NCBI GenBank assembly: GCA_001791035.1 | Contig: MGDX01000004.1 | Span: 1,423-38,579 of the forward strand | Direction of reading: 5' to 3' | DNA: 37,157 nucleotides | Source of the DNA: Candidatus Uhrbacteria bacterium RIFCSPHIGHO2_02_FULL_53_13 | Lineage (GTDB): Bacteria > Patescibacteriota > Patescibacteriia > UBA9934 > UBA11717 | In this document: one piece after another, positions 8,643 to 33,244 of the stretch | Layout of the letters: each line of letters starts with the position of its first letter | How positions within the stretch are numbered: position 1 is the first letter of the stretch | Position numbers and translations under genes: made by a program | Notes under the pieces: model-generated | Seen by the model: only the letters and a program-made list of their open reading frames with translations | Database searches by the model: none | Told to the model about the DNA's origin: nothing

Positions 8643-9662
8643 CTATAAAAAACTTGCCCGACGCACACGCTGAATGGCTGTATAGGCCGCGTACAGGAAC
8701 GGTCGTAGCACGACATCGCAGGTTGATGGATACGACACGCGCTCGCCGCCAAAGCCCAGCTTGAAACGCGTCACGCCTGCCAAGCGATGTTCCGGTTGGC
8801 CTTCGGGCGCGATTCCCCACCAGTCGTACGATTTCATCCCGCGTTCCTTTGCGTCCTGCATGAGCGACCAATGCAGGAGGTGCGGCGCCATCAGGTCTTT
8901 TTTTGTGTCCGCCGACGCGCCGTGCAAATAGGTGCGCGTGTTGCCAAAATCAATACACAATGCGGACGCGAGTACGTCTCCGTCGTGCACGGCTTGCTTT
9001 ACAAGCGCGCGCGGCGCATCTCCTTCGCCATTGAGATGACGCGCGATCGCCTCAAAATGCTTACGGTCATGCAGTCGAATGCCATGGCGCGCCGCCGTTT
9101 TGGACGACAGATCGTAAAACATCTCTATTGAACCGTCCTCAATGGTGACTCCCTTCCTTTTTGCAAGCCGAATGTTGTAGCGCGTCTTGTGATGCATCGC
9201 CGCTAACAGCGCCTCCGTATCCGCCGAAATATTAGTGATGAGTGTCGTGGAAGGTTGGACATCGGTCACGGGTAGAAGTTGAAAGTGAGAAGTTGGAAGT
9301 TGGCGTGCCGCGTCAACACGAAAAAAGAGTGGACGGGATTGTTGGGTGTGTGTTGCGTGCGTCAATGCTTTGAGCATGCGCGCTTCAATTTCGGGCGTTG
9401 CCCCCACCGGTCCGCGCGGAATGTAAAAATAGCGCTGTCCAAAAGGCAGGCGCATGAGAACCGACAGTGCTTGCGCGCGCTCGGTTCTGCTCTCATCGCA
9501 CAGGTTTCGCGCCACCGTGTGCCCGTCCTCTTCAAGCACGTCCCCCCATTCCCACGACTGCAAAAATGCTCCGCTTCTTTGACCATGCTTCAAAACAAAC
9601 GCGTTCCAATCCGGCACGGACGCCTTCTCTGTCACAGATAATGTTGCCGATTGAGACGACAT
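8643..9662 (-). CDS. FemAB-family peptidoglycan interpeptide-bridge aminoacyltransferase
   Basis: YNIRLAKRKGVTIE and ASADTKKDLMAPHLLHWSLMQDAKERGMKSYDWWGI are typical FemA/FemX segments. The ATG at 9662 is preferred over the listed TTG at 9674; it sits 4 nt after the glmS stop codon and is preceded by AGAGG. Confidence 0.85.
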   Translation of the reverse strand: MSSQSATLSVTEKASVPDWNAFVLKHGQRSGAFLQSWEWGDVLEEDGHTVARNLCDESRTERAQALSVLMRLPFGQRYFYIPRGPVGATPEIEARMLKALTHATHTQQSRPLFFRVDAARQLPTSHFQLLPVTDVQPSTTLITNISADTEALLAAMHHKTRYNIRLAKRKGVTIEDGSIEMFYDLSSKTAARHGIRLHDRKHFEAIARHLNGEGDAPRALVKQAVHDGDVLASALCIDFGNTRTYLHGASADTKKDLMAPHLLHWSLMQDAKERGMKSYDWWGIAPEGQPEHRLAGVTRFKLGFGGERVSYPSTCDVVLRPFLYAAYTAIQRVRRASFL

Positions 9663-9666
9663 GCCT

Positions 9667-11499
9667 CTACTCAACCGTCACACTCTTGGCTAAATTGCGC
9701 GGCATATCCGGATCAAACGCGCGCGCACACGCCGCCTCGTATGCCAAAAATTGTAGCGGTATCACGGCCAAGAGCGGCGTCAACATCTCGAGCGTCTTTG
9801 GAATGGTAATCACACGGTCAACAAGCGACGCATCGTACGGCGCCCCTTCGGTCGTCACTAAAATTACCGATCCGCCGCGTGCGCGAATTTCGTGCAAATT
9901 GCTCATGGACTTTTCAAACACGCTGTCACGTGGCGCAATCACCACAACCGGAAAGCCATCTTCAACAAGGGCAATCGGTCCGTGCTTCATTTCCCCCGCC
10001 GCGTACCCCTCGGCATGAATGTACGAAATTTCTTTGAGTTTGAGCGCTCCTTCGTGCGCAATCGGGTGGCAGTATTTTCGCCCAAGAAAAAGCGCATGGT
10101 GAGCATCCGCCAACAGTTCCGCCGCCGCACGGTACGGCTCTCGACAATCAAGCAACACCTGAATCTGATGCGGGAGTGCCAAGAGCTCCTTCACGATCCT
10201 CTGCCCCATGACAAGCGACAACGCGCGTTGCCGCCCCAACACGAGCGTGAACAAAGAGAGCACAACGACCTGCGACAAAAACGCCTTCGTGGACGCAACA
10301 CCGATCTCGGGACCGGCATGGTTGTACACTCCCGCATGCGTCTCTCGCGCGATGCTCGAGCCGACGACGTTCACGATTCCAAGCGTGAGCGCCCCCTTTT
10401 CCTTGGCTTCGCGCACCGCAAAAAGCGTGTCGGCTGTTTCACCGCTTTGGCTGATGGCCACGACCGCCGTGCCACTGTCAAGGATGGGTTTGCGATATCG
10501 AAATTCGGATGCCAACTCGACTTCGACAGGAATGCCGGCGTACTCCTCGAGCATGTATTCGCCCACGCATCCCGCGTAGTACGCCGATCCGCACGCCACG
10601 ATCACGATGCGTTTAATGTCCCGCAGTTGCTTCTCCACATCGCGCAACCCTCCCAAAACCGCCGTGCCGTTTTCTGCGTCCAATCGTCCACGTGTCGAGT
10701 TCAACACCACGTCGGGCTGTTCCATCATCTCTTTGAGCATGAAATGCGCGTACCCATGCTTCTGCAAATCCGCCGCTTCTCCATCAATCGTTTCGACCGG
10801 CTTTTGCACGGTGACGTTTTCGAACGTTCGAATGTGATACTCCGCACGAGTGATGGCAACGATTTCGCGATCGTCCAAGTACACGATGTCACGCGTGTGT
10901 TGCAAAATCGCCGACGCATCGGACGCGAGGATGTAGCCGTCACGGGCAATGCCAAGAATGAGCGGACTACCGAGACGCGCGGCCACCAGCGTGTCCGGTT
11001 CCAGGGACGACGCGACGACGATACCGTATGTCCCCTCGAGCATGGGAAGAACGGCGCCGACCGCATGGGACAGTTGCGCTCCATCTTTGAGAGCGTCTTC
11101 TATCAGATGCGCAATGACCTCCGTATCCGTTTCCGACGCAAACGCATGGCCGGATTGTTCAAGACGCGCGCGCAGAGACGCATGATTTTCGATAATCCCG
11201 TTGTGCACGACCGCCACGGACTCCGTGCAGTCGCGATGCGGATGCGCGTTGGCTTCCGTTGGCATGCCGTGCGTCGCCCATCGCGTGTGCGCAATGCCTG
11301 TGCTTCCCGCTAAGCGGCGCGTTTTGAGGGCACGCAAGAGCTCGCTCACTTTTCCAACGGCGCGCACAGTTTTAAGGCCCGCGCTCGTGTTTACTGCCAA
11401 TCCCGAAGAATCGTAGCCGCGATATTCAAGACGCTTCAGTCCGTCAAGCAGAACGGACTGCGCGTCTTGGGTTCCGCAATATCCAACAATGCCACACAT
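9667..11499 (-). CDS. glmS: Glutamine--fructose-6-phosphate aminotransferase (isomerising)
   Basis: The protein begins MCGIVGY with an N-terminal nucleophile Cys. It has two SIS domains, ends in the canonical ...KSVTVE, and is 610 aa long. Confidence 0.97.
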   Translation of the reverse strand: MCGIVGYCGTQDAQSVLLDGLKRLEYRGYDSSGLAVNTSAGLKTVRAVGKVSELLRALKTRRLAGSTGIAHTRWATHGMPTEANAHPHRDCTESVAVVHNGIIENHASLRARLEQSGHAFASETDTEVIAHLIEDALKDGAQLSHAVGAVLPMLEGTYGIVVASSLEPDTLVAARLGSPLILGIARDGYILASDASAILQHTRDIVYLDDREIVAITRAEYHIRTFENVTVQKPVETIDGEAADLQKHGYAHFMLKEMMEQPDVVLNSTRGRLDAENGTAVLGGLRDVEKQLRDIKRIVIVACGSAYYAGCVGEYMLEEYAGIPVEVELASEFRYRKPILDSGTAVVAISQSGETADTLFAVREAKEKGALTLGIVNVVGSSIARETHAGVYNHAGPEIGVASTKAFLSQVVVLSLFTLVLGRQRALSLVMGQRIVKELLALPHQIQVLLDCREPYRAAAELLADAHHALFLGRKYCHPIAHEGALKLKEISYIHAEGYAAGEMKHGPIALVEDGFPVVVIAPRDSVFEKSMSNLHEIRARGGSVILVTTEGAPYDASLVDRVITIPKTLEMLTPLLAVIPLQFLAYEAACARAFDPDMPRNLAKSVTVE

Positions 11500-11573
11500 A
11501 TCGTAATCGTGTTATGAACAGAAACCCATGTTAGCACATTCGACCGCGTCCATTGAACAAAATCCTCCCTGTG

Positions 11574-11612
11574 AAAAAAAGCATCGCCCGCGGTGAGGTG
11601 CCGCGAGCGATG
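11574..11612 (-). terminator. Intrinsic terminator
   Basis: The minus-strand RNA reads GCAUCGCUCGCGG-CACCUCA-CCGCGGGCGAUGC followed by UUUUUUU. The 13-bp stem has one U-G pair, which would be a C-A mismatch on the plus strand. Confidence 0.7.
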
Positions 11613-11843
11613 GGAGAGATTGGTCCTGGTGGACGGTCAGGGATCAAGGTGCACACACCCCCGTCCTCATCGCCTCCTCGATGAAGCCCGTGTGGGCCTT
11701 GCGGGTCCTCGGCCCCGCTTTCGGCCTTCAGGGTGCGATTCGACCAAGATTTGCGCTACAGCATGTCACACTGCATACGCGCACATTGGTCGTCAGGCGA
11801 AGCTCCGGAGCTTAGGCGCCTTTCGCCTGAACGTCCACCAGGT
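11574..11843 (-). ncRNA. Unclassified structured RNA between ruvA and glmS (candidate glmS leader or independent sRNA)
   Basis: The predicted transcription start falls immediately before CCUGGUGGACG (11832-11842), which pairs perfectly with CGUCCACCAGG (11625-11635). Several internal hairpins are present (CAGGCGAA/UUCGCCUG, CGACCAA/UUGGUCG, CAUCG/CGAUG). The unit ends at the intrinsic terminator. The only ORF listed here (11593..12000, plus strand) overlaps ruvA in antisense and is treated as spurious. Confidence 0.5.
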
Positions 11844-11849
11844 AAAAGA

Positions 11850-11878
11850 AAAATACACAACCCCTCAAAATCTGTCAA
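11850..11878 (-). promoter_or_regulatory. Sigma70-like promoter TTGACA-17-TATTTT
   Basis: On the minus strand the -35 is at 11873-11878 (overlapping the ruvA stop codon) and the -10 at 11850-11855. The spacer is exactly 17 nt. Confidence 0.45.
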
Positions 11879-12444
11879 ATCACCATCGTGAGCGCGGCCT
11901 TAATTTGGTCTTCGATGCGCACGATATCAGATGGAATACCGGCCGCAAGCGCCCGCGCCTGCGCGCGCGCGTAGCCCATGCCAACGAGCGCTTCAATTAA
12001 GTCAACATGCGTCGATTCAATGCGGCGCTCATTGGCGTCCGCCTTCAAGTCAATCGAACCGCGCAACTCGAGCACTATTTTTTGCGCCTTCTTTTTTCCA
12101 ATCCCCGGAACGACCGTCAAAAACTCGGCATCTCCATCCATCACATGCCGACAAAACGTATCTACCTCAAACAGTCCCAGGATTTTTACCGCCGCCTTTG
12201 GACCAACGCCGCTCACGGCAATCAATTTCCAAAACAGCTCCAAATGCTCGCGCGTGCGAACGCCAAAGAGCTCGTGACGATCATCGCGCACGGTTTCGTG
12301 CGTCCAAATCACGGCTTCATCTCCAACACGCAAATCCACCGCGTGCGTTGCCGCCACATCCACGCGATACCCAATCCCGCCAATGTGAAGCAGGACCCAC
12401 TCCGGCCCGCGTTCGAGCACCGTTCCTTGAACACGCATGATCAT
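11875..12444 (-). CDS. ruvA: Holliday junction branch-migration complex subunit RuvA
   Basis: GGIGYRV..., ELFGF-like HELFGVRT, and LIAVSGVGPKAAVKIL (the HhH motifs) are present, and the length is 189 aa. Confidence 0.93.
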   Translation of the reverse strand: MIMRVQGTVLERGPEWVLLHIGGIGYRVDVAATHAVDLRVGDEAVIWTHETVRDDRHELFGVRTREHLELFWKLIAVSGVGPKAAVKILGLFEVDTFCRHVMDGDAEFLTVVPGIGKKKAQKIVLELRGSIDLKADANERRIESTHVDLIEALVGMGYARAQARALAAGIPSDIVRIEDQIKAALTMVI

Positions 12445-12465
12445 GCGATGAGTATATCAAATAGA

Positions 12466-12509
12466 GGTTGGAAAAAACAAAGAAATCGGGCGCTAGAGAG
12501 GCGCCCGAT
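12466..12509 (-). terminator. Intrinsic terminator after the 12530..13198 gene
   Basis: The minus-strand RNA reads AUCGGGCGCC-UCUCUA-GCGCCCGAU followed by UUCUUUGUUUUUUCC. Confidence 0.65.
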
Positions 12510-12529: not shown

Positions 12530-13198
12530 CTATGGCCGGTGCCAACACGAGGGGCACTTCAGCGCCCCGGCGGTCCACACGTACCTGTCCCGACGGCAGG
12601 ACAAGCACATGTCTCCTTCGGAAGGTTTCGCCTTCACCGTCGGTATCGAGCCCGTATCGGCATCTGACACCGTAGTCAATCTGCGCTTTCCTTGCTCCAG
12701 CCACGTCGGCGCGATCTTCCATCCGTACTGCTTCACGAGGCCCGCCTCTCGATGATCCGGAAGCACGCCATGACCCGGCCGGTCGCAGTAATCCGCGCCA
12801 CGATGGTATCGCGTCGACTGTCCGCAGAACGGACACAACGACTGCCCATTCTCATCCACAAAAAGTGGGAGAAGCGCCACGCAACAGTTCTTCGCCGTAG
12901 AAGGCGCCACGAGCGAATGCACACCCGGGGCGTAGAGATACCGGCCGCTTGCATCAAGATTGAGCACACAGTACGGGCTCATCCATGGCGGATCAACCGT
13001 AAGCATCGTCGCACCGTCCTCATAACGCACAGCCACCTTCACGGTCATGGTCATATTCTTCCAGTCGGTGCTCCACCCAGCGAGGTTCAAAAACTCCGGA
13101 GCAAAATGAACGTGCGCTCCAACCATCAGCAACTTCAAGGAACGATCGTTCAGTTCTATCCAGCCTAGGACTTTGCGTTTCATGAGAAGATCCGGCAC
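12530..13198 (-). CDS. Hypothetical Cys-rich protein (putative zinc-ribbon motifs)
   Basis: The ORF is 222 aa with genome-typical composition. It carries CPFCG..(x13)..CDRPGH and a C-terminal CLSC-x15-CPSC. I recognise no family. The listed start is GTG; an ATG at 13183 is an alternative. Confidence 0.55.
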   Translation of the reverse strand: MPDLLMKRKVLGWIELNDRSLKLLMVGAHVHFAPEFLNLAGWSTDWKNMTMTVKVAVRYEDGATMLTVDPPWMSPYCVLNLDASGRYLYAPGVHSLVAPSTAKNCCVALLPLFVDENGQSLCPFCGQSTRYHRGADYCDRPGHGVLPDHREAGLVKQYGWKIAPTWLEQGKRRLTTVSDADTGSIPTVKAKPSEGDMCLSCRRDRYVWTAGALKCPSCWHRP

Positions 13199-13267: not shown

Positions 13268-16234
13268 TTATGACGCGCGCGTCAATCCAAGCTGGAAAGC
13301 TCCCTGCGCACGTTCTTCTTTTTCTTGTGCTTTGTCAAGCGAACGCTCCATCGCCGTGGCGCGTGTGCGCTCTAAAATGTCGGCCTCGTACGCGTCAAGC
13401 GCGGCAGAAACATCCGCGTCGTCCGTTTCCACAAACAAAACAATCTGGTCTTCAATCGTGAGTTCGCTGTCCTTGCGCAGAGCATTCGCGCGGCGCACCA
13501 GCTCGCGCACGATGCCAAGCCGCTTGAGTTCCGGCGTGATGTTCGTGTCGAGCGTCGCGGCGAGGTCTCCCTTGCGCCATGTCACCGCCTGCACATTCAC
13601 CTCGTCTTTCAGGATATCAAGATACGCCTCTTCGAGCGCTTCTGGAGCGCTCACCTCCACCGACGCCAACACTTGCCGCACGGGAATTTTTTCCTCCTCG
13701 CGTGCCTCGAGTGTTTTCGTAACAAGTTCGCGCACACGCGCCATCTGCGCGAGCGCATCCTCCTGGCGCGCCGTAAGCTTGCGCGCTTCTGGCCACAGCG
13801 CCAGATGCACCGAGTCCCCCTCTTCGCGCACATACAACCCACGATACACTTCCTCGGCGATAAACGGCGCAAACGGCGCCATCAATTTTGCGAGATCCGT
13901 TAAGCACGCGCGCAGAGTTTGCGTCGCGCGACGATGATCGCGCATATCATCGCCCTTGAATCGCTCACGACTACGGCGAACATACCAGGTCGAGAGTTCA
14001 TCAATGTACGCCGTCAAAGCGCGCACGGCCTCGGTGATGCGATAGCCGTCCAGGGACGCTGTCACAGAACGCACCGTCGCGTCGCGCACCGTCAAAATCC
14101 ACTCGTCCAAAACATGCGTTGACGGCGCCTCGTGTGCCACATCATCGGCCGCCACATACATCTCATAGAAACTGACGACATTGCGCACAAGGGCAAAGTT
14201 CTTCCGCACCATATCGCCCAACACTTTCTCGTCAAACAACTTGTTCTCACCAGGTGCGTTGATCGCATACATATACCAACGCACGGCATCGGCGCCAAAA
14301 CGCTCCATCGCTTCCATGGGATCGACAACATTGCCAACGGATTTGCTCATTTTCTTGCCGTGAGCGTCAAGAACATGTCCAAGAGACACGACATTTTTGT
14401 ACGGCGCGCCGCGACCAAGCGCCACGGCAACAGCCAACAACGTGTAAAACCATCCGCGCGTTTGGTCGATGGCCTCGGCGATGTAATCGGCCGGATACTG
14501 ACGATCAAACATCTGCACGTTCTCAAACGGATAATGCCACTGTGCAAACGGCATGCATCCGGAGTCAAACCAAACATCCACGACATCGGGCACGCGACGT
14601 GCCGTTTTGCCGCACGCCTCATCTTCACAACGCAGAACGATATCGTCCACAACGGGACGATGTGGATCCAAATTCTTCGGCACCTCCCCTACAGCCCGCG
14701 CGCGTAGTTCTTCAAAACTCCCGATGCACTGCCGCTTACCGCACGCCTCGCAAACCCAAATCGGTAGTGGCGTTCCCCAGTATCGCTCGCGCGAGAACGC
14801 CCAATCCTTCACATCACTCAACCATTCGCCAAAACGACCGTCCTGAAGATGCTCCGGCTCCCAATGAATCTTTGCGTTGGCCTCCAAGAGTTTCTTGCGC
14901 AGTGCGCTCATCTTGATGTACCACGAGTGCTTGGCGTAATAGATGACTTTTTGCTTACAGCGCCAGCAGTGCGGATATGAATGCGTGTGTTTTTCTTTCG
15001 CAAACAATAGGCGGCGCTCGGCTAAGTCCTTGACGATATCCACGGCCACCGCCTCATCGGTCACAAGCCGCCCCGCCAAAAATCCCGCCTCCTGAACGTA
15101 GGTGCCGTCCGGCTTGACGATGTGATACTTAGGAAGACCAACCGTGTTGCCCAACGCAAAATCGTCGGCACCGTACATGACGGCCGTGTGAACAATGCCC
15201 GTGCCCTCGTCTGTCGTGACAAAATCGGCGGCGACTACGGAAAACATTTTGTCATCGCCGCGCTTTCTTTTGCTTGCCGTCACGTGAGGCAGTGCATCGC
15301 TTTTTTCCAACACATCATAGAGCGGCCTGTATTTCAGCCCAACTAGTCCTGAACCAGAACACTTGTCAACGATTTCAGCATCTGCAAGACCGCATGCCTC
15401 TAATCGTGATTTAGCAAGCCAACAGTATTCATCGTGACCTGATGCATGAGGCAATTTCTGCCCATCAGAAACATGTGCAACACCCTGATCGAGAATAAAT
15501 TTTTTGACTTTTACATACTTGATATTTTTTTTCACCGCCAACGCCACATTGCCGAGCAGTGTCCACGGCGTTGTCGTCCACGCAAGCAAAAATGTTCCAG
15601 GCTCATTCACGAGCTCAAACTTCACGGTCACGGACAAATCTTTCACGTCCTTATATCCTTGCGCCAACTCATGCGACGAGAGCGACGTCTCGCATCGCGG
15701 ACAGTGCGGTGTTACGCGGTAATCCTGATACAAAAGCCCGCGGTCCCAAATCTGCCGCACCACCCACCACAGCGACTCAATATATTCTGGCGCATACGTC
15801 ACATACGCATGTTCCATATCAACCCAATACCCAATGCGCCGAGTAAACGCGCGCCATTCGTCAAGGTACTTCCACACGCTTTCGCGGCACTTGGCATTGA
15901 ACGCGGCGACACCGAGAGTTTTAATCTCCTGCTTCGTAGAAAACCCCAACTCCTTCTCCACTTCCAACTCCACCGGCAATCCATGCGTATCCCAGCCGCC
16001 TTTGCGCTCGACATGAAATCCCTGCATCGTCTTGTATCGCGGGATACAGTCCTTGAACGCACGCGCCTCGGCATGATGAATACCTGGACGCCCGTTGGCC
16101 GTCGGCGGCCCCTCATAAAACACAAAGTCCCCTCGCGGCGCTTCCTTTTCAAGCGATCGCTCAAACACGCGATGCGCCTCCCAATACGCTAAGATTTCCA
16201 ATTCACGCTCGTTGACGGTTTTTTGCTGTGCCAT
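13268..16234 (-). CDS. ileS: Isoleucine--tRNA ligase (type 2, Thermus/archaeal-like)
   Basis: FVFYEGPPTANGRPGIHHAEARAFKD is the HIGH region, followed by GWDTHGLPVELEVEKELG and KMSKSVGN. The length is 988 aa. Confidence 0.95.
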   Translation of the reverse strand: MAQQKTVNERELEILAYWEAHRVFERSLEKEAPRGDFVFYEGPPTANGRPGIHHAEARAFKDCIPRYKTMQGFHVERKGGWDTHGLPVELEVEKELGFSTKQEIKTLGVAAFNAKCRESVWKYLDEWRAFTRRIGYWVDMEHAYVTYAPEYIESLWWVVRQIWDRGLLYQDYRVTPHCPRCETSLSSHELAQGYKDVKDLSVTVKFELVNEPGTFLLAWTTTPWTLLGNVALAVKKNIKYVKVKKFILDQGVAHVSDGQKLPHASGHDEYCWLAKSRLEACGLADAEIVDKCSGSGLVGLKYRPLYDVLEKSDALPHVTASKRKRGDDKMFSVVAADFVTTDEGTGIVHTAVMYGADDFALGNTVGLPKYHIVKPDGTYVQEAGFLAGRLVTDEAVAVDIVKDLAERRLLFAKEKHTHSYPHCWRCKQKVIYYAKHSWYIKMSALRKKLLEANAKIHWEPEHLQDGRFGEWLSDVKDWAFSRERYWGTPLPIWVCEACGKRQCIGSFEELRARAVGEVPKNLDPHRPVVDDIVLRCEDEACGKTARRVPDVVDVWFDSGCMPFAQWHYPFENVQMFDRQYPADYIAEAIDQTRGWFYTLLAVAVALGRGAPYKNVVSLGHVLDAHGKKMSKSVGNVVDPMEAMERFGADAVRWYMYAINAPGENKLFDEKVLGDMVRKNFALVRNVVSFYEMYVAADDVAHEAPSTHVLDEWILTVRDATVRSVTASLDGYRITEAVRALTAYIDELSTWYVRRSRERFKGDDMRDHRRATQTLRACLTDLAKLMAPFAPFIAEEVYRGLYVREEGDSVHLALWPEARKLTARQEDALAQMARVRELVTKTLEAREEEKIPVRQVLASVEVSAPEALEEAYLDILKDEVNVQAVTWRKGDLAATLDTNITPELKRLGIVRELVRRANALRKDSELTIEDQIVLFVETDDADVSAALDAYEADILERTRATAMERSLDKAQEKEERAQGAFQLGLTRAS

Positions 16235-19680: not shown

Positions 19681-19766
19681 TGGTGCCGGGGAGAGGACTC
19701 GAACCTCCACACCGCAAGGGCACTAGCTCCTAAGGCTAGCGTGTCTACCAATTTCACCACCCCGGC
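19681..19766 (-). tRNA. tRNA-Leu (anticodon UAG), CCA encoded
   Basis: The reverse complement is GCCGGGGTGGTGAAATTGGTAGACACGCTAGCCTTAGGAGCTAGTGCCCTTGCGGTGTGGAGGTTCGAGTCCTCTCCCCGGCACCA. It has a 7-bp acceptor stem, a long variable arm and the anticodon loop CTTAGGA. Confidence 0.93.
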
Positions 19767-23447: not shown

Positions 23448-23522
23448 TGGAGCGGGAAACGGGGATCGAACCCGCGACCTCTTCCTTGGCAAGGAAGCGC
23501 TCTACCACTGAGCTACTCCCGC
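23448..23522 (-). tRNA. tRNA-Gly (anticodon GCC), CCA encoded
   Basis: The reverse complement is GCGGGAGTAGCTCAGTGGTAGAGCGCTTCCTTGCCAAGGAAGAGGTCGCGGGTTCGATCCCCGTTTCCCGCTCCA (75 nt). It folds into a cloverleaf with the anticodon loop TTGCCAA. Confidence 0.93.
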
Positions 23523-24198: not shown

Positions 24199-24272
24199 TG
24201 GAGCGGGTAACGGGAATCGAACCCGTGTCTCCAGCTTGGGAAGCTGGCATACTGCCACTGTACTATACCCGC
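24199..24272 (-). tRNA. tRNA-Gly (anticodon CCC), CCA encoded
   Basis: The reverse complement is GCGGGTATAGTACAGTGGCAGTATGCCAGCTTCCCAAGCTGGAGACACGGGTTCGATTCCCGTTACCCGCTCCA (74 nt), with the anticodon loop TTCCCAA. Confidence 0.92.
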
Positions 24273-24393: not shown

Positions 24394-24479
24394 GGGCCGA
24401 TGGTGGAATGGTATACACGCGACACTTAAAATGTCGTCCGGAAATCCGGATGAGGGTTCGACCCCCTCTCGGCCCACCA
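24394..24479 (+). tRNA. tRNA-Leu (anticodon UAA), CCA encoded
   Basis: The sequence is GGGCCGATGGTGGAATGGTATACACGCGACACTTAAAATGTCGTCCGGAAATCCGGATGAGGGTTCGACCCCCTCTCGGCCCACCA. It has a long variable arm and the anticodon loop CTTAAAA. Confidence 0.92.
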
Positions 24480-31804: not shown

Positions 31805-33244
31805 ATGTCTAAACTTCACCAAATCGCATCCAATACCGCGATGCAAATGCTGGGCCGCTTCGTGGGCACGGTATTTGGCGTTCTCACCATTGCTGTGATG
31901 ACGCGCGCACTCGGCGCCGAAGGATACGGCCACTTCACGCTCGCGTTTACCTTTTTGGCCGTCGCTGGCGCCATTGTGGATTTTGGCTTTACACTCACCA
32001 CGACGCAGATGATTTCGGAGGAAGACGCCGACGAGTCACGCATTGTCTCAAGCGCCATGACCGTGCGCATCGTCTCGGGCATCGTGCTGTTCGGCCTCGC
32101 GGCGCTCGTTGGCGCGTTCATGCCGTACGACCCAATCGTGCGCGCCACCATCGCCGTGGGCGCATTTTCGTTCTTCTTCATGACACTTTCGCAAATGTTC
32201 ATCGGCGTCTTCCAAAAACATTTGTCCATGTGGCGCCCGGCAACTGCCGAAGCCGTAAGCCGAGGCATCATTCTCATTTTGATCGTCGTTCTTGCAACCA
32301 CTCAAGTCTCCGTACCGCACATGATGGGCGCGTTTGCTGTCGGTAACGCCTTGATGGCGCTCATCAACATCCTCTTCGCGCGCTCGTTCACGCGCATTCG
32401 CCTTACGTGGCACCACAAAACCATCGTCACATTCATCTCACGCAGTTGGCCCATTGCCGCGACGATCTTTTTCAACCTGCTGTACCTCAAAGGCGATATT
32501 GTATTCATGTCATTTTACCGATCGAGTGAGGAGATTGGCTTGTACGGCGCCGCGTATAAAGTACTCGACGTGATTAGCGTTGTACCGACCATGTTCATGG
32601 GACTGATTTTGCCGATGCTTGTGTTGGCGTGGACCACCAAGCGCCGCCAAGAACTGCACGCGCTCTTGCAACAGGCATTTGATTTGTTCGCCATCATTTC
32701 CCTACCAATCTTGGGCGGTACATTCATTGTAGCCGGACCGCTCATGGCGCTTGCCGCCGGCGAAGAATTCCGCGCGTCCGGGCCATACTTGATGCTCTTG
32801 ATGCTTGCCAACACGTTTGTGTTCTTTGGGATTCTGTTTTCACACGCGGTCGTGGCTATTAACAAACAGCGCGCCATTATTCCGGCGTTTGTCATCACGG
32901 CCATCGTGGCAGTCGTCCTGTATTTGGCAACCATTCCAAGCTACGGTGCACTCGGCGCGGCATGGACGACCATCGTCTCGGAGGCGATGATCATGTGTTT
33001 GACATTTTGGATGGTGCGTAGAACCGCCGCATTCGCACCGCGATTCAAGAGTTTTGGCGTCGGACTTTTGTCAGCGTGCGCCATGACCGCGCTGGGCTTT
33101 TTGTACTTGCAGTGGGTCGGCAACACGAACGTCTGGAACTTGCTCGTTGTCGTCATCGGATGCGCCGCATTCTACGGCGTAAGCGTCGTGGCGCTTGGCG
33201 GCGTGCGCCTTGCCACGCTCAAGTCCATGCTCCCACGCGTATGA
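31805..33244 (+). CDS. Polysaccharide/oligosaccharide flippase (Wzx/MOP superfamily)
   Basis: The protein is 479 aa with about 12-14 TM helices. Its N-terminal IASNTAMQMLGRFVGTVFGVLTIAVMTRALGAEGYG is typical of the polysaccharide biosynthesis protein family. Confidence 0.8.
   Translation: MSKLHQIASNTAMQMLGRFVGTVFGVLTIAVMTRALGAEGYGHFTLAFTFLAVAGAIVDFGFTLTTTQMISEEDADESRIVSSAMTVRIVSGIVLFGLAALVGAFMPYDPIVRATIAVGAFSFFFMTLSQMFIGVFQKHLSMWRPATAEAVSRGIILILIVVLATTQVSVPHMMGAFAVGNALMALINILFARSFTRIRLTWHHKTIVTFISRSWPIAATIFFNLLYLKGDIVFMSFYRSSEEIGLYGAAYKVLDVISVVPTMFMGLILPMLVLAWTTKRRQELHALLQQAFDLFAIISLPILGGTFIVAGPLMALAAGEEFRASGPYLMLLMLANTFVFFGILFSHAVVAINKQRAIIPAFVITAIVAVVLYLATIPSYGALGAAWTTIVSEAMIMCLTFWMVRRTAAFAPRFKSFGVGLLSACAMTALGFLYLQWVGNTNVWNLLVVVIGCAAFYGVSVVALGGVRLATLKSMLPRV

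Follow-up and report, generated by a model that had tools for sequence, protein, structure and literature searches.

The described systems closest to the element considered here are the glmS ribozyme (RF00234), which lies upstream of glmS, folds into a nested double pseudoknot, and cleaves the mRNA in response to glucosamine-6-phosphate (GlcN6P); terminating riboswitch and attenuator leaders (lysine, cobalamin, T-box, and c-di-AMP), in which a multi-helix body closed by a basal helix is followed by a terminator; 6S RNA (RF00013 and relatives), which is an independent gene that is poorly conserved in sequence; and orphan non-coding RNAs (ncRNAs) such as raiA, OLE, ROOL, and GOLLD. To our knowledge, almost no ncRNAs beyond the universal ones have been experimentally characterized in the Candidate Phyla Radiation (CPR)/Patescibacteria, which have tiny genomes. 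Here, we describe a predicted small RNA (sRNA) of ~270 nt from a groundwater metagenome-assembled genome of Candidatus Uhrbacteria (Patescibacteria/CPR). The stretch of DNA that was analyzed (hereafter the window) comprises 37,157 nt of contig MGDX01000004.1, and the sRNA occupies positions 11574 to 11843 of its minus strand, directly upstream of glmS. The ends of the transcript, from a start near 11843 to the end of a U-tract, were inferred from the positions of a promoter and a terminator. A preliminary description, based on the sequence of this region, had considered a divergent glmS ribozyme, a GlcN6P- or cell wall-related leader of the terminator type, and an unrelated housekeeping sRNA. 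We favor, with a probability of about 0.72, an independently transcribed structured sRNA that represents a new and narrowly distributed family and that, in all likelihood, is distinct from both the glmS ribozyme and a leader of glmS.

Homologs, fold, and transcription signals of the sRNA

Comparison of homologous loci showed that the RNA is conserved and non-coding, that it is specific to one strand and folds into multiple helices, and that a putative promoter and terminator are conserved with it; it belongs to no described family and is not tied to glmS. Seven further lineages were found via ruvA/femAB synteny, using protein searches and contig look-ups. The sRNA directly follows ruvA in L091 and L234 (both ruvA-RNA-femAB) and in L233 (ruvA-RNA-glmS-femAB), and a second non-coding unit, X, intervenes in L096 (ruvA-X-RNA-femAB), L103 (ruvA-X-RNA-glmS), and L231 (ruvA-X-RNA, where the contig ends). 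The remaining lineage, L235, has the order RNA-glmS-femAB. An nhmmer profile built from five sequences matched the window once, at 11845-11574 (E = 8.5e-74), and matched the four close lineages with E ~ 1e-75 to 1e-79, L231 with E = 3e-4, and L103 with E = 0.04. A covariance model built from four sequences (R1) recovered L231 (E = 1e-4) and L103 (E = 1.5e-3) with boundaries exactly as they had been set by eye beforehand. A covariance model on the core (11842-11625) scored 201 bits on the minus strand versus 28 bits on the plus strand, which agrees with the strand assignment in the preliminary description. The middle third of the sRNA is replaced in L096 and L103.

A 276-nt stretch had a minimum free energy of -132 kcal/mol; its dinucleotide shuffles gave -103.7 +/- 5.5 kcal/mol (z = -5.1), and none of 200 was as stable. 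The corresponding fold consists of a closing helix and five local hairpins; at least four local helices had been proposed. The closing helix, P1, pairs CCUGGUGGACG (11832-11842) with CGUCCACCAGG (11625-11635; all features are on the minus strand) and comprises the 11 perfect base pairs described previously, with 196 nt between its halves. Its conservation and covariation in relatives had been suggested as a check, and both were found: P1 was 97% paired over seven sequences, and 5 of 12 pairs were compensatory (e.g., CCCAGUGGCAG/CUGCCACUGGG in L096). The P2 domain (11793-11830) pairs UCAG (11830-11827) with CUGA (11796-11793), with compensatory changes in two of the four pairs (UAG/CUA in L233-235; UCGA/UUGA in L231), and it contains the invariant hairpin AAGCU-CCGG-AGCUU (11813-11800), which is followed by CGCC. 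The block AGCUCC(C)GGAGCU...CGC within it is identical in all eight lineages, and the 12-nt palindrome AGCUCCGGAGCU followed by CGCC is invariant or nearly so in the same set. Alternatively, UCAGG can pair with a distal CCUGA (11641-11637) just before the 3' strand of P1; the local P2 and this extension of P1 fit equally, each with its own covariation. One lineage, L233, tolerates a 12-nt tandem duplication (GGCGCAUAGGCG x2; L233:755-778) that lies directly past P1, in the 5' portion of the sRNA.

The remainder of the body consists of a long hairpin, P3, and a long-range helix, P7, that encloses two further hairpins. P3 (11741-11792) has an outer stem CGACCAA/UUGGUCG with compensatory changes in 5/7 pairs and an apical stem GCAGU/GCUGU with changes in 2/5 pairs (five close lineages only). 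Its loop is GUGACAU in the window and follows the consensus NUGACAC, which is invariant or nearly so; the P3 region differs in L096, L103, and L231. P7 joins CGCAC (11733-11737) to GUGUG (11656-11652) and was 100% paired in six sequences, with two of five pairs compensatory (CACGU/ACGUG in L096). P4 (11695-11726) comprises the stems GGCC/GGCC and GCGGG/CCCGC and an 8-nt loop, GCCGAGGA, whose consensus ACCGAGGR is invariant or nearly so; P4b was 100% paired with 3/5 pairs compensatory, and 1/4 pairs were compensatory in P4a. P5 (11664-11687) has the stem CUUCAUCG/CGAUGAGG, four of whose ten pairs were compensatory in seven sequences (CAUCG/CGAUG, CGUCG/CGACG, and CGACGC/GCGUCG), and a purine loop, AGGAGG, that is likewise invariant or nearly so. 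The 3' strand of P7 is followed by a single-stranded, conserved CACCUU and by CCUGA (together 11637-11656), and GUGUGCACCU is invariant across the five close lineages.

Covariation was evaluated on two alignments. The five close sequences share a mean column identity of 77% and can be aligned reliably, and RNAalifold predicted 82 pairs among them, 21 of which have a compensatory change. The alignment of all eight lineages was made by hand, segment by segment, with gaps entered as N and with insertions specific to L096 and L103 left out; its segments for the five close lineages reproduce the real sequences exactly. Standard pairing was observed in 95.0% of the 357 cells that represent 59 pairs in 10 helices (86.6 +/- 0.9% in shuffles), and 24 of the 59 pairs had changes on both sides compared with 10.3 +/- 2.1 in shuffles, with 0 of 500 shuffles reaching 24. 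These pair counts are optimistic, since the structure guided the alignment and the eight sequences include five that are closely related to one another. When the 3' partners were slid by 1-3 columns, 31-44% of cells were paired and at most four pairs were compensatory, and these slid controls and the independent RNAalifold prediction point the same way as the hand alignment. At least seven covarying helices and the invariant blocks have been kept despite substantial protein divergence (RuvA down to 60% identity), suggesting that the RNA has a specific molecular function that is unexplained by current families.

A putative promoter, TTGACA-17-TATTTT, is present on the minus strand as previously described. 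The -35 hexamer TTGACA (11873-11878) overlaps the stop codon of ruvA, and the -10 hexamer TATTTT (11850-11855) follows at 17 nt and lies 7 nt before the closing helix; no second promoter-like site was found within 11000-12500. All eight lineages have a TTGACA-like -35 element at equal spacing (GGAACA in L235), and the homologs have TAGAGT, TAGGAT, TATAGT, or TGTAGT (the last in L231) in the place of the -10 element. The two elements are 17 nt apart and the -10 element ends 4-10 nt ahead of P1 in all eight lineages, with deviations from the promoter consensus at one or two positions each in L235 and L231.

The predicted intrinsic terminator (11574-11612) has a stem at 11612-11582 (CAUCGCUCGCGG / CCGCGGGCGAUG) with the loop CACCUCA, followed by one C (11581) and U7 (11580-11574). 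The GC-rich stem and the U7 are thus as the preliminary description had them, with the difference that the stem was counted as 12 bp, including one G-U pair, instead of 13 bp. All seven lineages whose contigs include the 3' end keep an intrinsic terminator, although those of L096 and L103 are unrelated in sequence; the L231 copy is cut by the contig end and its terminator is not visible. Between P1 and the terminator lies a pyrimidine-rich linker, ACCAAUCUCUCC (11613-11624), which is C/U-rich in all lineages and is not conserved in sequence. Counts of promoters and terminators in the single sequence were not above the shuffle expectation (0.9 and 2.1 sites), and it is their conservation across lineages, rather than these counts, that makes the promoter and terminator credible. 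A tRNA-like 3' end, suggested by ACCA after P1 in the window, was rejected because it is not conserved in the homologs.

The Rfam scan that had been recommended as a test for a known family returned no match to the element. At the gathering threshold, Rfam 15 identified nothing in the whole window beyond four tRNA genes (19681-19766, 23448-23522, 24199-24272, and 24394-24479; Leu-TAG, Gly-GCC, Gly-CCC, and Leu-TAA). At E <= 10, the 501 nt around the element yielded three chance-level matches (flavivirus stem-loop, p27 CRE, and anti-hemB), and the glmS ribozyme, c-di-AMP, 6S, 6S-Flavo, SRP, RNase P, tmRNA, T-box, lysine, and cobalamin models were unmatched at this threshold. Scans of the seven homologous loci with Rfam at these two thresholds returned chance-level matches only. 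A weak match to the archaeal C/D-box sRNA sR41 at L091:3639-3693 (28 bits, E = 0.003-0.005, gathering score 54) lies within a 404-aa open reading frame (ORF) called on the minus strand of L091 and is probably due to chance. ARAGORN detected neither a tRNA nor a tmRNA at the element or at the homologous loci, and a search of the literature on RNA motifs of the CPR or Uhrbacteria found nothing relevant. The sRNA family is new relative to Rfam 15 and the searchable literature.

The element also does not appear to encode a protein. No reading frame is open across all lineages, and homologs differ by indels of 1 nt and 12 nt. The AUG that follows GGAGG in the 3' strand of P5 is ACG in L233 and L234, where the opposite strand compensates, which argues that this AUG is not a start codon. 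Small ORFs, comprising the one that would begin at this AUG and a long antisense frame (89 codons in the window), were therefore rejected for lack of a conserved open frame.

Relation to glmS and femAB and alternative explanations

The upstream regions of glmS in relatives, which the preliminary description had proposed to collect, did not yield the sRNA. The best 80 GlmS loci among GTDB species genomes (54-68% identity) were mostly from Patescibacteria, including several from Uhrbacteria, to which the closest GlmS relatives belong. None of the 80 contained the sRNA, whether examined by nhmmer, by eye, or with the covariance model, and their upstream regions were short and unrelated. The absence of the sRNA from these loci, even within the phylum, argues that it is not a glmS element. 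Of the seven lineages with a 3' flank, four (the window, L233, L235, and L103) have glmS immediately after the sRNA, and the sRNA is kept in L091, L234, and L096, where glmS is missing from the locus and the next gene is femAB. The sequences at L233:975-1060 and L234:1019-1100 are nearly identical over the sRNA, the terminator, and the downstream promoter element, with the whole of glmS present in the former and absent from the latter. Given these near-identical flanks, a recent and clean gain or loss of glmS appears to have taken place here. L091 and L096 also have no glmS at this position. The contents of the ruvA-femAB junction vary in general and comprise nothing, the sRNA, X and the sRNA, or other sequence, with or without glmS. 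The stop codon of ruvA overlaps the start codon of femAB (ATGA), without an RNA, in L232 (L232:1987-3146; RuvA 59% identical). Since no intergenic region exists in this lineage, the RNA, terminator, and downstream promoter behave like an inserted cassette in the others.

The U-tract of the terminator is 74 nt from the glmS ATG (11499), close to the ~70 nt given previously. Outside the sRNA and 28 nt before this ATG lies an extended -10-like element, TGCTAACAT (11528-11536), with homologous elements TGCTAAACT, TGCTAAAAT, TGATAGCAT, or TGATAATAT that are located 6-9 nt from the start codon in five homologs and ~21 nt from the likely femAB start in L091. In each of the seven complete lineages, the terminator is followed by the motif TGnTAnnnT ahead of the next start, whether this is the start of glmS or of femAB, and no Shine-Dalgarno sequence precedes the start of the downstream gene. 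Many genes of the window have TAnnnT, often as TGnTAnnnT, ending 6-10 nt before the start and lack a Shine-Dalgarno sequence (e.g., the starts at 12444, 8563, 28742, 31805, 7461, and 11499); examples are TGATATACT-6 nt-ATG at ruvA and, at 31805, TGTATAAT-7 nt-ATG. Transcripts of this genome seem as a rule to be leaderless or nearly so. Because the organism ordinarily arranges its promoters in this way, a separate promoter is probable for the downstream gene; for glmS, it would probably be the extended -10 element described above. With a promoter and terminator of its own and a separate promoter downstream, the sRNA would not be part of the glmS mRNA, and its adjacency to glmS would stem from local gene order.

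Several points weigh against an independently transcribed sRNA of a new family. Only eight lineages are known, five of which are closely related, and the hand alignment favors the structure. L096 was not significant with R1 (3.8 bits) and was assigned by eye, on the grounds that position and promoter spacing are the same, that the closing helix has the same GUGG core, that the invariant block AGCUCCCGGAGCUCGCC is present, and that the P5 hairpin is followed by GAUGAAGG...GUGCAAACCUU. The start and end of the sRNA and its termination efficiency are all read from sequence, and a function in trans, together with any partner, is conjecture on our part. Furthermore, in seven of seven lineages the terminator is followed on the same strand, after 25-140 nt, by either glmS or femAB, and both genes act in the synthesis of peptidoglycan precursors, as would be expected of the targets of a cis-acting regulator. 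This last observation favors a leader (a riboswitch or a protein- or tRNA-dependent attenuator) of a glmS-femAB operon, the two genes overlapping where both are present, in which the terminator would be regulated and transcripts that pass it would supplement, or take the place of, those started at the downstream -10-like element. The size and complexity of the RNA are aptamer-like, its conserved and covarying body is closed by P1 as in a sensor fold, and a terminator follows. A candidate antiterminator, formed by the 3' strand of P5 and the 5' half of the terminator, has -15.1 kcal/mol in the window, where 7% of shuffles are as good (2% in L096). However, this pairing was no better than shuffles in five of seven lineages (L091, L233, L234, L235, and L103), the terminator duplex is far more stable in every lineage, and the change of P5 in L233 and L234 is compensated internally with no matching change in the terminator. 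The candidate was rejected as not conserved, and no conserved antiterminator was found, other pairings not having been searched exhaustively. In addition, femAB lacks the RNA in L232, glmS lacks it at the 80 loci examined above, and the TGnTAnnnT motif between terminator and start is the usual layout of the genome. The association with glmS and femAB can be inherited synteny, since these small genomes have conserved gene order, and adjacency is weak evidence of cis-regulation where most genes seem to have promoters at their start codons. We therefore regard a cis-acting leader as unlikely. The terminator-type leader of the preliminary description is weakened accordingly: glmS or femAB is always downstream, as it would require, whereas a conserved antiterminator is missing and the downstream gene has its own extended -10 element. 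It is more doubtful still that the RNA represents a new class of sensing leader (for a metabolite or macromolecule) or ribozyme for peptidoglycan-precursor genes of the CPR (glmS and a FemX-type transferase) that tunes terminator read-through; if so, it would be a functional analog of the glmS ribozyme on an unrelated fold.

A very divergent housekeeping RNA that homology models miss, most plausibly the 6S RNA of this clade, would account for the strong promoter and terminator, the length of ~220-270 nt, and the paired 5' and 3' ends, with P1 and UCAGG/CCUGA as the closing stem, a large central loop, and a terminal domain. In the alternative structure, the closing stem reaches ~17 bp and leads to a large loop that contains the conserved single-stranded CACCUU. 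However, neither the 6S, 6S-Flavo, SRP, RNase P, and tmRNA models nor ARAGORN identified such an RNA, and the body is multi-branched, with a bifurcated end and four or more hairpins that covary, rather than rod-like around a central bubble. Its absence from this locus, the only one considered, in L232, L101, and L106 and the replacement of its middle third in L096 and L103 are both unusual for a housekeeping RNA. A housekeeping identity is thus improbable; of the earlier suggestion of an unrelated housekeeping sRNA, an unrelated sRNA is what the data best support, and the housekeeping role is not borne out given the narrow clade. A highly divergent or rearranged glmS ribozyme is suggested by the position directly upstream of glmS in four lineages and by short echoes of the ribozyme core, namely GGCGCC, GACGAGG (L091 and L235), and AUCGAGG. 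Such echoes, which the preliminary description had noted in the window, are not conserved (UGACGACC in the window versus UGAGGGCG in L091), and no Rfam model aligns there at E <= 10, including RF00234 in the window and six homologs. Moreover, loci that have no glmS keep the RNA, glmS is set apart from it by the 12-bp terminator with its U7 and by a promoter-like element, and a closing helix with a multi-branch body takes the place of the nested double pseudoknot. We consider a glmS ribozyme highly improbable. Finally, a short protein-coding gene, or a GC-rich inverted repeat that arose by chance in a non-coding spacer, could be argued from the chance frames that GC-rich sequence yields, such as the antisense frame, and from the chance-level counts of promoters and terminators in the single sequence. 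This is exceedingly improbable given that the RNA is conserved at ~77% mean column identity (compared with 79% for RuvA and 63-66% for FemAB at the protein level), with 24 compensatory pairs, a strand-specific covariance score, indels of 1 nt and 12 nt, and no frame that is open in all lineages.

Genomic context, distribution, and a second non-coding unit

The sRNA lies within a run of minus-strand genes that comprises ileS (13268-16234), a hypothetical gene of 222 aa (12530-13198), ruvA (11875-12444; the 5' neighbor of the sRNA), glmS (9667-11499; its 3' neighbor), and femAB (8643-9674), which encodes a peptidoglycan-bridge transferase of the FemAB family and overlaps the end of glmS. Several aquifer metagenomes, as well as contigs of the assemblies GCA_001791335.1 and GCA_001791505.1, encode a RuvA of identical sequence. 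The contig of GCA_001791335.1 (MGEL01000017.1; L002:3545-3964) has two runs of N inside the sRNA (27 and 39 bases), which affect the P3/P4 region and the terminator, respectively or in reverse order, and the sRNA would therefore be hard to find from this public record alone.

The sRNA family appears to be limited to a small clade of Candidatus Uhrbacteria. In L101 and L106 (RuvA 50-55% identical), the sRNA was not detected at the same junction by nhmmer or the covariance model, and R1 found nothing in L232 either. The ruvA-femAB junctions of L101 and L106 (L101:4030-4518 and L106:3559-4141) are occupied by different non-coding sequence, in which one or two intrinsic terminators were identified, and that of L101 also has a 133-aa ORF; other ncRNA genes may thus occupy this site. 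A search of metagenome contigs with a pattern for the invariant hairpin (GGCGAGCTCCN{0,1}GGAGCTN{2,20}CSMCTG) revealed no true homolog among the matches listed, which were GC-rich coding DNA, and the same pattern gave four chance matches only in viral contigs. The sRNA had no blastn match in phage or plasmid collections, and an origin from a mobile element was rejected on this basis.

Unit X, which lies between ruvA and the sRNA, is a non-coding unit of 0.8-1.1 kb (L103:985-2062, L231:2400-3245, and L096:4600-5395) with its own promoter of the TTGACA-17-TATAAG type and a GC-rich terminator. The copies of L103 and L231 are homologous (nhmmer E = 1e-58) and have no shared ORF; their fold has z = -5.15 and 16 compensatory pairs (from two sequences only), and a module, GAGCGA-hairpin-GUGAAGGU-hairpin-GGUUGnGCC...AACGAACCCU, is repeated twice. 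X of L096 occupies the same place, though it is not detectably similar to the X of L103 and L231. No Rfam match was found for X in L103 (E <= 10) or L096 (E <= 1). X is a candidate large structured RNA, and its position beside the sRNA suggests that the ruvA-femAB junction of these bacteria collects ncRNA genes.

Proposed mode of action and comparison with known systems

In the model that we propose, the sRNA would be transcribed from its own sigma-70-type promoter, starting just ahead of P1, and would fold into a compact body made up of the 11-bp P1, the P2 domain with its invariant 12-nt palindromic hairpin, the long P3, and P7 around P4 and P5. Transcription would end at the strong intrinsic terminator of the sRNA, and the next gene (glmS in the window, femAB in others) would probably be transcribed separately from the extended -10 promoter past this terminator. 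We infer from these signals that the sRNA is a separate transcript ending at 11574, that glmS has its own promoter, and that the RNA works in trans. It would do so as a folded RNA, most likely by binding, or serving as a scaffold for, a protein or a second RNA, with the invariant hairpin and the loops ACCGAGGR, AGGAGG, and NUGACAC as recognition surfaces. More speculatively, the palindromic hairpin and the conserved purine-rich loops could be the sites of contact with such a partner, or of dimerization. This interpretation corrects a tempting misannotation, in which a structured RNA upstream of glmS is read as a glmS ribozyme, and it also means that the locus most likely lacks what had made it look exciting, namely a new regulator linked to glmS.

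Compared with the glmS ribozyme, the sRNA is of similar overall size and lies upstream of glmS on the same strand in 4/7 lineages. It differs in having other helices, no match to the model, and a terminator and promoter-like element before glmS, in being kept without glmS, and in being absent from the glmS loci of other Patescibacteria. With terminating riboswitch and attenuator leaders it shares a P1-closed multi-helix body, conserved junction and loop nucleotides, a terminator, and a position ahead of biosynthetic genes of one pathway (peptidoglycan precursors). Unlike these leaders, it has no conserved antiterminator and no match to a riboswitch model, an unstructured linker of 12-26 nt separates P1 from the terminator, and the downstream gene has its own promoter-like element. 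The sRNA resembles 6S RNA as an independent gene of roughly at least 200 nt with a strong promoter, a terminator, and paired ends; it differs in its multi-branched body, the lack of a model match, and a patchy and clade-restricted distribution. Relative to raiA, OLE, ROOL, and GOLLD, the sRNA has no sequence or model similarity in the Rfam 15 scan, is known from ~8 lineages, and is much smaller than OLE, ROOL, or GOLLD. It is like these orphan ncRNAs in being a stand-alone unit of narrow range with many covarying helices and invariant blocks, and the kind of RNA that it represents, an orphan structured bacterial sRNA, is already familiar.

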